Positions 42,001 through 45,000 of a stretch of 64,000 nucleotides of DNA are shown here, one piece after another (the first letter of the stretch is position 1; each line of letters starts with the position of its first letter). The position numbers were made by a program. This DNA is from Escherichia coli O157:H7 (GTDB lineage Bacteria > Pseudomonadota > Gammaproteobacteria > Enterobacterales > Enterobacteriaceae). The stretch lies in the NCBI RefSeq assembly GCF_013167455.1, contig NZ_CP038328.1; one strand, given 5' to 3'.

Positions 42001-45000
42001 AAGCCGGTCAGAGATTTGCTTGAGGTCATGCCACCGGACCTTTGGCTGACCCTATCTTGTTTGTACTGTGCACCGGTAACAAGTTCATTATTAGCAGGCA
42101 GCGAAAAGTGACTCTGCAATGTGACCGCCTGAGTGTATTGCTTATCATGGGTGTCAGTCTTGTTATGAACGGTCAGAGCCTGAATCATCGGACTGGGAAC
42201 AGGCTGTGTCGTTTTTACTTCGTTGGCAAATTGGCGCTGGATGGTCTGCTCATACGCGTCGAAATGAATTTTTTTTAGATAGTCACCGTCCACGTCTGTG
42301 TCATAGAATACCCCAACTTTCTCTCGTTCAAGTTTAGGTATTTTGACACTAAATGCCTCATAACTTCCGTCTGGATCCTCATAGTAAGTTTGTGTCGCGA
42401 GTCTGTAGCGATCAAGCGAGAGGCCAAAACGATGGTTTCCGGAGTTATAACCCAACCATACACCCTGACTATTGTTACGATAGTTGGTATTCGGCAGACG
42501 TCCATCCGGCGTATCACGATTGCCCTGATCAGAATAACTACCGTTGATGCGATAATCAAATCCACCGATGCTCCCCTGGACCGCGATTGATTCTTCCCAG
42601 CCTGCTGTTGCGGAATTATAAACAGCTTTCACAACTCCAGATGCAAGTTTGTCACTGAACCGCCCCGGAAATCCTGGAGACTAAACTCCCTGAGAAAGAG
42701 GTAAACAGGATGACTAAAAATACTCGTTTTTCCCCCGAAGTCCGTCAGCGGGCGATTCGTATGGTTCTGGAAAGTCAGGATGAATATGACTCACAGTGGG
42801 CGGCAATTTGTTCCATTGCCCCAAAGATTGGCTGTACGCCGGAGACTCTGCGTGTCTGGGTTCGCCAGCATGAGCGGGATACCGGGGGCGGTGATGGTGG
42901 GCTCACCAGCGCTGAACGTCAGCGTCTGAAAGAGCTGGAACGTGAAAATCGTGAACTGCGCCGCAGTAACGATATCCTTCGCCAGGCTTCCGCTTATTTT
43001 GCGAAGGCGGAGTTCGACCGCCTCTGGAAAAAATGATGCCACTGCTGGATAAGCTGCGTGAGCAGTACGGGGTCGGACCGGTATGCAGCGAACTGCATAT
43101 TGCCCCGTCAACGTATTACCATTGTCAGCAACAGCGACATCATCCGGATAAACGCAGTGCCCGTGCGCAGCACGACGACTGGCTGAAGAGAGAGATACAG
43201 CGCGTATACGATGAAAATCATCAGGTGTACGGTGTGCGTAAAGTCTGGCGTCAGTTGTTACGGGAAGGAATCAGGGTGGCCAGATGTACAGTGGCACGTC
43301 TCATGGCGGTTATGGGACTTGCCGGTGTTCTCCGGGGTAAAAAGGTCCGTACGACCATCAGCCGGAAAGCCGTTGCCGCAGGCGACCGCGTAAACCGTCA
43401 GTTCGTGGCAGAACGACCTGACCAGCTGTGGGTGGCTGATTTTACTTACGTCAGCACATGGCAGGGCTTCGTCTATGTGGCGTTTATCATTGATGTGTTT
43501 GCCGGATACATCGTGGGGTGGCGGGTCTCATCGTCTATGGAAACGACATTCGTGCTGGATGCGCTGGAGCAGGCGTTGTGGGCCCGTCGTCCGTCTGGCA
43601 CCATCCATCACAGCGATAAAGGCTCTCAGTATGTGTCACTGGCCTATACGGAGCGACTAAAAGAAGCCGGATTACTGGCATCAACAGGGAGTACAGGCGA
43701 CTCGTATGACAACGCGATGGCTGAGAGCATCAATGGTCTTTACAAAGCGGAGGTAATACACCGTAAGAGCTGGAAAAACCGTGCAGAAGTGGAACTGGCC
43801 ACACTAACGTGGGTGGACTGGTATAACAATCGACGATTGCTGGGAAGGCTGGGCCATACTCCTCCGGCAGAAGCAGAAAAAGCTTATTATGCTTCCATCG
43901 GAAACGATGATCTGGCAGCCTGAGTTCACAGATAAAACACTCTCCAGGAAACCCGGGGCGGTTCACACCTCCCTTTTTGGTGATGAAGTTAACAATACCG
44001 CCAATTGCCTGTGAACCGTACAGTACGGAATATGGACCTTTCACTACCTCAACACGCTCCAGCGCAGACTCATCTATCAACAGTCCCACACCATAATTAT
44101 CTCCGGCGCGCTGATAAGTTACCTCCTGACCATCAATGAGAATTAAAACACGGGAGGATGCTTCGCCACGAATGCGGATTTGTTTACGGCCTGCCAAGGA
44201 GTTGTCTGTTATCTCTACTCCGGGGATGTCCTGCAAATTATCGGCTATGGAGGCATTGGTGGAGTTCTGCAATGTTTGTTGGTCAATAACCTGTATAGTC
44301 GCCGGGCTTTCCCAAAGGTTGCTTGCCGAACGATTCGTGGTCACGACGAGCGTCTCTTCGTTGCTGATTTTTGTTTCTGAAGAAGTTGCGGTTGCAGTAG
44401 AAACTATCCCAGAAATGCATAATGACAGAGTGGAAAGGATATAAATTCGACAAGGTATATTATATAACATTTCATCCCTCATTAATACAAAGTACAAATG
44501 ATTGCTGTAATGATAATTATTTTCATTTATGTTCTCATATATCTATAATTATTGTCATCTTCATAAATTGTAAATATCAAACATTTTTGACCTTAATCAT
44601 GTTTTTTGATAGATATTTTACGACTGAACATATCCGTCGTTTCCTCTGACTCGTGTCAGTCGGTCTCTGGTTGTATCCACGGACCGCACTCTTGACATAA
44701 GAGTGCGGTCCGTGGAAAACGGAGTTGAAAAAATGGTGTCTGAAAGAAGGTACCATCATTGTGATGACAAATACTTTGGCGTGGATAATGTAATTAATTG
44801 CTGAAATTGACCGTATATGCGGTAAGACTCATATCAGTATCAGGTCCGGTTAATTGCTGATACTAATATAAACTTTTTACAAAAGGATGAATGCAGAAGG
44901 TTACTCTAATGGCCAGAGTGATGACAATGATGGTCAGACGTTGACCTGCAGAAACTGCATTTTAATTGGTCTATAAAGTCTGCAAGAGGAATCAGGGTCA

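Follow-up and report, generated by a model that had tools for sequence, protein, structure and literature searches.

The genome of Escherichia coli O157:H7 carries a flawless inverted repeat upstream of a disrupted TonB-dependent receptor gene, and we wondered what this palindrome is and how it came to be perfect. The repeat is located in a stretch of 64,000 nucleotides (nt) from contig NZ_CP038328.1 (assembly GCF_013167455.1), which was analyzed as a whole and is referred to below as the window. An initial annotation, made from the sequence alone, had placed it in an AT-rich intergenic stretch and had proposed that it might be a regulator binding site or a structured RNA element. We consider it likely that the palindrome is a fossil within a dead mobile element, a quasipalindrome that has been perfected, rather than an element that controls the receptor gene.

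The palindrome consists of a left arm (TCCACGGACCGCACTCTT, 44676-44693), the loop GACAT (44694-44698), and a right arm (AAGAGTGCGGTCCGTGGA, 44699-44716). The two arms of 18 nt are 100% complementary around the 5-nt loop. The repeat is therefore as flawless as first described, but each arm extends one base beyond the 17 base pairs (bp) counted at the time. It occurs once in the window, of which it is the longest perfect hairpin-type repeat, and the base composition predicts ∼9e-6 chance occurrences of such a repeat. Folding of the 75-nt palindrome context as RNA gave -41.0 kcal/mol for the + strand (z = -8.9) and -37.9 kcal/mol for the - strand (z = -8.6), and in neither case was any shuffled sequence as stable. 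The GC-rich, perfect stem-loop and its very low folding energy are reminiscent of intrinsic or bidirectional terminators. However, the sequence 3' of the stem is AAAACGG on the + strand and TACAACC on the - strand. Neither strand has a U/T-run 3' of the stem, and a terminator scan did not report the site. The A-run that follows the stem on the + strand and the T-run that precedes it on the - strand are on the wrong side for both directions, which agrees with the original view that this is not an intrinsic terminator. A scan of 40000-50000 with the Rfam 15 covariance models at E ≤ 1 returned an ALIL pseudoknot at 42991-43107 as its sole match and nothing at the palindrome, and an exact-pattern scan of viral contigs gave no match to the palindrome.

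The origin of these bases was answered by homology. On the evidence of alignments with intact relatives, the palindrome was shown to sit in a 5'-truncated, decayed element of the IS110/IS1111 family of insertion sequences (IS), which includes the K-12 pseudogene yoeH. This remnant, at 44661-45103 on the + strand with an approximate left edge, corresponds to the last ∼440 bp of an element of ∼1,440 bp. A profile of four intact elements, used with nhmmer, aligned 44681-45103 with profile positions 977-1418 of 1448 (E = 9e-57). The envelope of this match begins at 44661, and the palindrome lies 15-25 nt inside the truncated 5' edge. The intact relatives, themselves ∼1,440 bp long, were reached via plasmid matches of ∼70% identity. 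In a tblastn comparison, residues 284-337 of a 339-aa IS110 transposase matched 44683-44844 at 48% identity (E = 1e-9). This C-terminal transposase pseudo-ORF on the + strand contains two in-frame stops. The reference 339-aa transposase was assigned to NF033542 ('IS110 family RNA-guided transposase', 1.5e-99) and also has matches to PF02371 and PF01548, and the translated remnant matches 160 plasmid records with IS110 transposases at ∼53% identity. The loop, the right arm, and the sequence downstream encode the last ∼54 transposase residues: the loop is homologous to TGACC/TGACA (Thr codon) of the transposase gene, and the right arm reads (K)ECGPW(K), where intact relatives have KEPGPWI. In K-12, yoeH equals 44686-44844 and starts inside the palindrome, the counterpart of which is at 2,068,389-2,068,429 of NC_000913.3. 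The description as an AT-rich intergenic stretch thus holds for the receptor-side flank (27% GC at 44471-44660 versus 58% in the palindrome), but the site is not plainly intergenic.

The non-coding part of the element has decayed as well. A remnant of the 3' non-coding region, at 44854-45103 on the + strand, is 70-73% identical to the relatives, compared with 55-61% in the coding part, and the remnant as a whole is about equidistant from all of them. In 22 intact relatives this 3' region has a consensus structure with 12 compensatory pairs, and their structured non-coding RNA starts ∼55 nt past the stop codon. IS1111-type elements such as ISEc11 (1,443 bp) encode a seekRNA 3' of tnp (PMC11187229), and 44854-45103 is presumably a decayed seekRNA or bridge-RNA region. 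By length and layout, the relatives can be likened to ISEc11-type IS1111 elements: in addition to their total length, they have a DEDD-type transposase of 339 aa and a structured 3' non-coding region of ∼280 nt. The window remnant has kept this layout, with the C-terminus of tnp followed by the non-coding region and both oriented as in the relatives. Unlike ISEc11-type elements, it lacks the first ∼960 bp, carries stop codons, and has ∼50% protein identity to known copies; it is a relic and not a full or active IS. Two side observations concern this remnant. A 17-nt inverted repeat (44752-44768/44918-44934, 88% complementary) connects the transposase remnant with the non-coding region, 150 nt further on; its counterpart in one intact relative is complementary at 9 of 17 positions by hand count, and it could be a second gain of self-complementarity. 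Just 3' of the hairpin, a 23-codon ORF (MVSERRYHHCDDKYFGVDNVINC, 44733-44804, + strand) has GGAG 8 nt before its ATG. It is out of the transposase-remnant frame, and its ATG is changed to ACG in C43(DE3), a B-lineage strain.

At its right end (∼45098) the IS110 remnant adjoins an IS66-family remnant, which extends over 45098-45655 on the + strand from the end of tnpB to the start of tnpC and is ∼70% identical to plasmid copies. The plasmid matches of ∼70% identity to 44812-45655 had at first been taken for one IS110 or IS66 element, a view that was rejected when local BLAST assigned 44812-45098 to the 3' end of an IS110 element and 45098-45655 to the IS66 remnant. Plasmid pRHB15-C23_2 carries an intact IS110 relative inside an IS66 element, at a differing position.

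To the left of the palindrome, plain local alignment detected no DNA homology to the element beyond ∼44661. Local DNA alignment of 44471-44680 with the first 1 kb of three intact elements gave a score no better than shuffles, and for that reason an apparent match of RRFL*LVSVG (44635-44664) to the transposase motif RRLLDIPGVG, read as an internal deletion, was dropped. The 27 nt directly left of the palindrome showed a weak likeness to the relatives' flank when compared with random window segments (p ∼0.01-0.03). Where the IS110 homology fades, another inverted repeat (CTGAC-TCGT-GTCAG, 44648-44661) may mark the truncation junction. A word-indexed protein search yielded no candidate for a closer intact relative of the remnant, and an exhaustive HMMER search of 1.8 billion representative proteins gave three matches at 50-52% identity, none of them closer.

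Was the hairpin already perfect in the mobile element? In all four intact plasmid copies an imperfect hairpin is found at the homologous codons, with -18 to -26 kcal/mol versus -41 here. For a broader comparison, 72 further loci were collected from metagenomes, which yielded 37 distinct sequences for this segment, and 30 sequences were aligned. The relatives have an outer stem of 10 bp, in which TTTATYCAYGG (F-I-H-G) pairs with CCRTGGATAA (P-W-I). The presence of this stem in all relatives would suit the idea that a perfect hairpin was native to the IS lineage, was selected there, and was inherited by E. coli, for example as an mRNA structure for transposase translation or stability, or as a processing site between the tnp mRNA and the seekRNA or bridge RNA. 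Two further points agree with it: an in-frame reading across the palindrome is possible (LWLYPRTALLT*ECGPWK versus LFIHGARAAALLTKEPGPWI), and IS1111-type seekRNAs are presumed to arise by processing of a longer RNA (PMC11187229). We nevertheless regard a native perfect hairpin as quite unlikely. The outer stem was paired in 96.0% of cells in the 30 sequences and in 95.3% in shuffles, so that codon conservation explains the stem. Covariation was seen in one pair only (UA 10, UG 9, CG 8), a level that 34-36 of 500 shuffles also reached, and we rejected selection on the relatives' hairpin as a candidate conclusion because these signals were too weak. In addition, the 37-nt hairpin interior is variable and is unpaired in all 29 relatives, the perfect stem requires the loss of a Pro that is invariant in the family, and the structured non-coding RNA lies far from the hairpin.

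The E. coli copy retains the outer stem (TCCACGG/CCGTGGA), and its interior of 27 nt is completely paired and shorter by 6-10 nt, depending on the alignment. Its right arm is identical to the family at 15 of 18 positions (83%), compared with ∼50% identity of the left arm to the matching codons of intact IS110 relatives. The three right-arm differences make up a single codon, TGC, in place of the Pro codon that is invariant in the 29 relatives (CCT>TGC), and this TGC pairs exactly with GCA of the left arm. Clustered differences and a small deletion that all make the arms more complementary are what template switching leaves behind when it corrects a quasipalindrome, a process in which the nascent strand copies the other arm. 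Template-switch mutations associated with quasipalindromes were reportedly described by Ripley in 1982 and, for a hotspot in E. coli thyA, by Dutra and Lovett in 2006. In the course of events that we favor, the ancestral transposase gene would have contained an imperfect quasipalindrome at the F-I-H-G ... P-W-I codons. Intramolecular template switching during replication would then have rewritten the arms as exact complements and, as we infer, shortened the interior by 6-10 nt, with the left arm probably re-templated from the right arm. Most likely, the gene was no longer functional by that time, and the palindrome would have drifted neutrally since then. Fortuitous promoters that transcribe both strands would give rise to double-stranded RNA (dsRNA) that is sensitive to RNase III, and whose cleavage is concentrated at the left arm, as a passive effect, and the gathering of IS insertion and deletion end-points at the palindrome would be another.

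There is precedent for such a process, since, according to a review, template switching in E. coli turns quasipalindromes 'perfect or more perfect' (PMC7202029). As in those mutations, an imperfect coding repeat appears to have been made perfect here through clustered changes and a small deletion that raise the complementarity of the arms. Unlike in the classic cases, the event is reconstructed from relatives that are 55-73% identical and that serve as proxies rather than as a direct ancestor. Furthermore, more positions are involved than in the classic single-patch events, which would call for repeated rounds or for an exceptionally long patch. Some other points weigh against the proposed origin. 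With no closer intact relative among the search results, the ancestral hairpin could also have been natively perfect. An alignment that keeps the frame by means of two single-codon gaps is about as good as one with a 10-nt gap, so that more than one number and order of mutational events would fit. The E. coli copies are at least 98% identical, which leaves their conservation without power against a recently acquired function, and an RNase III hot spot combined with three IS end-points in 41 bp could hint at more than a passive relic. Finally, given the weak homology on its left side, the palindrome could have arisen at the truncation junction.

This last scenario can be specified as follows: in the truncating event, a template switch at the break, during replication or repair, copied 18 nt of the element in inverted orientation, after which the end was joined to AT-rich DNA on the upstream side of the receptor gene, so that the left arm would be junction filler and not original gene sequence. 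A single event would then cover both the truncation and the palindrome, the distance of ∼15-25 nt between the palindrome and the end of the IS110 homology would fit, and so would the much lower likeness of the left arm than of the right arm to the relatives. We judge it unlikely, however, because the 27-nt left flank is still relative-like (p ∼0.01-0.03, as given above) and the nhmmer envelope starts at 44661, left of the palindrome. Moreover, the outer stem is already present at the same codons in the relatives, and the TGC of the right arm was seemingly templated from the left arm, which must then be original. Template-switch perfection of a hairpin that pre-existed in the transposase gene is thus still the explanation that we consider likely.

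We also looked at how the palindrome is distributed and how it varies. It is present at one locus per genome in 2,755-2,760 of 5,426 complete E. coli genomes (about half); what is counted as a second 'place' per genome is its own match on the complementary strand. A genome-wide search for further copies, as suggested by the initial annotation, accordingly found none. Like REP or BIME sequences, the palindrome is short, lies outside functional genes, has the potential to fold into an RNA hairpin, and is able to attract insertions of IS elements. Unlike these sequences, which occupy hundreds of loci, it occupies one locus per genome and has an unrelated, coding-derived sequence, and its exclusion from the REP elements was correct. 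The 2,211 full-length copies comprise ∼1,770 perfect ones and ∼440 with one mismatch, which in all four genomes sampled was C>T at 44687; this change gives a G.U pair in the + strand RNA and an A.C mispair in the - strand RNA. Two strains that were compared differ by seven substitutions in 420 bp, one of them inside the palindrome. Within the low statistical power of these comparisons, the palindrome shows no apparent sign of constraint. Another ∼540 genomes have a truncated copy, most of them starting at 44683 beside an IS3-family element; this shared junction at 44682/3 probably reflects one event, and inspection of one such genome showed its receptor side to have been replaced. In other strains an IS1 junction is found at 44705/6 and an IS3 junction near 44651, and strain KE51 carries a simple IS2 insertion exactly in the loop (44693-44698) with a 5-bp TGACA target duplication (positions 160-175/1495-1510 of locus L115). 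Three of ∼9 breakpoints in ∼500 bp are in the palindrome, which is suggestive but not significant. The hairpin may attract IS elements, with numbers that are too small to say more.

Could the palindrome act on the receptor gene nonetheless? The 5' fragment of this gene, the orthologue of yoeA, lies at 43730-44470 on the - strand with its ATG at 44470. It is broken by an IS3-family element, in line with the initial statement that the gene is disrupted. The palindrome is 206 bp upstream of the annotated ATG, and the ∼180 bp stated earlier fits an upstream TTG at 44497 instead. The receptor gene is a pseudogene in many strains, this one included, and in some strains it encodes an intact receptor of 715 aa (WP_000966628.1) with Plug and beta-barrel domains. 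The palindrome is found upstream of these intact E. coli alleles as well, but only within the same IS remnant. A Fur-box-like site (TGTAATGATAATTATTTTC, 44506-44524) overlaps the divergent receptor and yoeH promoters; it is the sole consensus match in the receptor upstream region, agrees with the consensus at 15 of 19 positions here and at 16 of 19 in intact-receptor strains, and is ∼150 bp away from the palindrome. The palindrome itself had rightly been distinguished from a Fur box.

Perfect dyad symmetry and a location ∼200 bp before a regulated gene for an outer-membrane receptor are what one might expect if a dimeric DNA-binding protein used the palindrome as its operator to regulate this gene. 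This was one of the functions originally suggested, and we now find it extremely unlikely. We compared 15 orthologous receptor loci from seven genera (Kluyvera, Citrobacter, Raoultella, Enterobacter, Klebsiella, Providencia, and Izhakiella), with protein identities of 66-78%. None of the 15 has a related palindrome upstream of the receptor gene, and the DNA homology to the window ends at the coding region. Hairpins that are present upstream of some of them (L012, L014, L020, and others) were rejected as unrelated terminator-like stems of neighboring genes. An operator is further contradicted by the derivation of the palindrome from transposase coding sequence, by its single copy per genome, which leaves no regulon, and by the Fur-like box beside the promoter, which already covers Fur control. 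Arms of 18 bp are also far longer than typical operator half-sites. Judged from its sequence context, the palindrome is not in the receptor regulon.

A role of the hairpin at the RNA level has to be weighed against the K-12 transcription data. A consensus scan predicted a sigma-70 promoter, TTTTCA-18-TATAAT, at 44520-44549 on the + strand (10 of 12 matches). The same hexamers have been listed as a constitutive sigma-70 promoter of yoeH (PMC3946193), so that a sense yoeH transcript runs through the palindrome. Antisense RNA at this locus is visible only in an rnc mutant (PMC6847712). A p19-capture experiment reported a hot spot at U00096.2 2066435-2066460, with the reads AGUGCGGUCCGUGGAUACAAC and UGUAUCCACGGACCGCACUCU forming a duplex of 21-22 nt (PMC7373196 supplement). 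After a coordinate shift of 1,976 bp this hot spot coincides with window positions 44669-44694, that is, with the left arm plus its left flank. The same supplement lists immunoprecipitated dsRNA at 2066003-2066504, which corresponds to approximately 44625-45126 in the window and therefore to essentially the whole IS110 remnant.

One could imagine from these data that E. coli has co-opted the hairpin as an RNA element, with options such as an RNase III entry site, a 3' end that blocks exonucleases, or an insulator of the Fur-regulated receptor promoter against transcription from the IS graveyard. The sense and antisense transcripts of K-12 (the latter in the rnc mutant), the RNase III duplex hot spot at 44669-44694, and the position of the hairpin upstream of the receptor promoter on the receptor-sense strand are compatible with this. 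However, the p19 reads come from opposite strands, include bases beyond the stem, and have 2-nt 3' overhangs, which argues for an RNase III-cut duplex of sense and antisense RNA and not for the hairpin itself. There is no U-tract that would support termination. The stem mismatch of ∼440 genomes leaves an A.C mispair in RNA of the receptor-sense strand, and in ∼540 genomes the palindrome is partly gone, along with the receptor side in the single copy that was looked at. Many strains, including this one, have only a pseudogene for the receptor. Co-option thus seems very unlikely to us. The earlier suggestion of a structured RNA element survives in a weak sense, in that both strands are transcribed in K-12 and an RNase III duplex maps to the left arm, but nothing indicates that the sequence evolved as an RNA element. 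We also considered whether a functional intragenic hairpin exists at FIHG...PWI in IS1111-type transposase genes, with the E. coli fossil still acting as an RNase III hot spot. Such a hairpin might, for example, be an RNase III entry that releases the 3' seekRNA part, or a throttle on transposase synthesis. The weak covariation in the alignment does not lend support to this idea, which we hold to be highly improbable.

The locus as a whole is the left end of the cryptic prophage CP4-44 in K-12, with the gene order cobT-cobS-cobU, a cbi gene remnant, IS remnants, the TonB-dependent receptor gene, and P4-like island genes. A 601-bp query from the region gave 100% identity to O157:H7 and many further strains. 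The IS3-family element in the receptor gene (42710-43923) encodes an orfA of 108 aa and an orfB of 296 aa and contains the ALIL frameshift pseudoknot mentioned above (42991-43107, 121 bits). The K-12 receptor gene has an IS2 insertion at another position than this element. At higher coordinates, a complete ISEc8 of the IS66 family occupies 45881-48322 (45873-48330 with flanking repeats), with 8-bp direct repeats GGTTGTTC. Its ends are 23-nt terminal inverted repeats starting GTAAGCGTACAGC, and the copy is a simple insertion, as K-12 and strain 2547 are without ISEc8 at this site. Other hairpins in the window are a repeat with perfect 14-nt arms and a 1-nt spacer at 32303-32331 (CAATGAGGGTTGCC), one with 16-nt arms that are 94% complementary without spacer at 17129-17160, and a perfect 13-nt stem between A and T runs at 25570-25600 that resembles a bidirectional terminator.

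These results correct the annotation of the locus: a palindrome of regulatory appearance is, on our analysis, transposase coding sequence and should not be read as an operator or riboregulator of the receptor. They also assign K-12 yoeH to the C-terminus of tnp and the ∼260 bp that follow, presumably, to the guide-RNA region of such an element. If a functional intragenic hairpin did exist in IS1111-type transposase genes, improbable as this is, the E. coli fossil would be an exaggerated version of it that shapes the divergent yoeH and yoeA transcripts. In the reading that we consider likely, the locus offers a sequence-level explanation for the published RNase III and dsRNA hot spot of K-12, and it would represent a natural, species-wide case of a quasipalindrome that was apparently driven to perfection by template switching.

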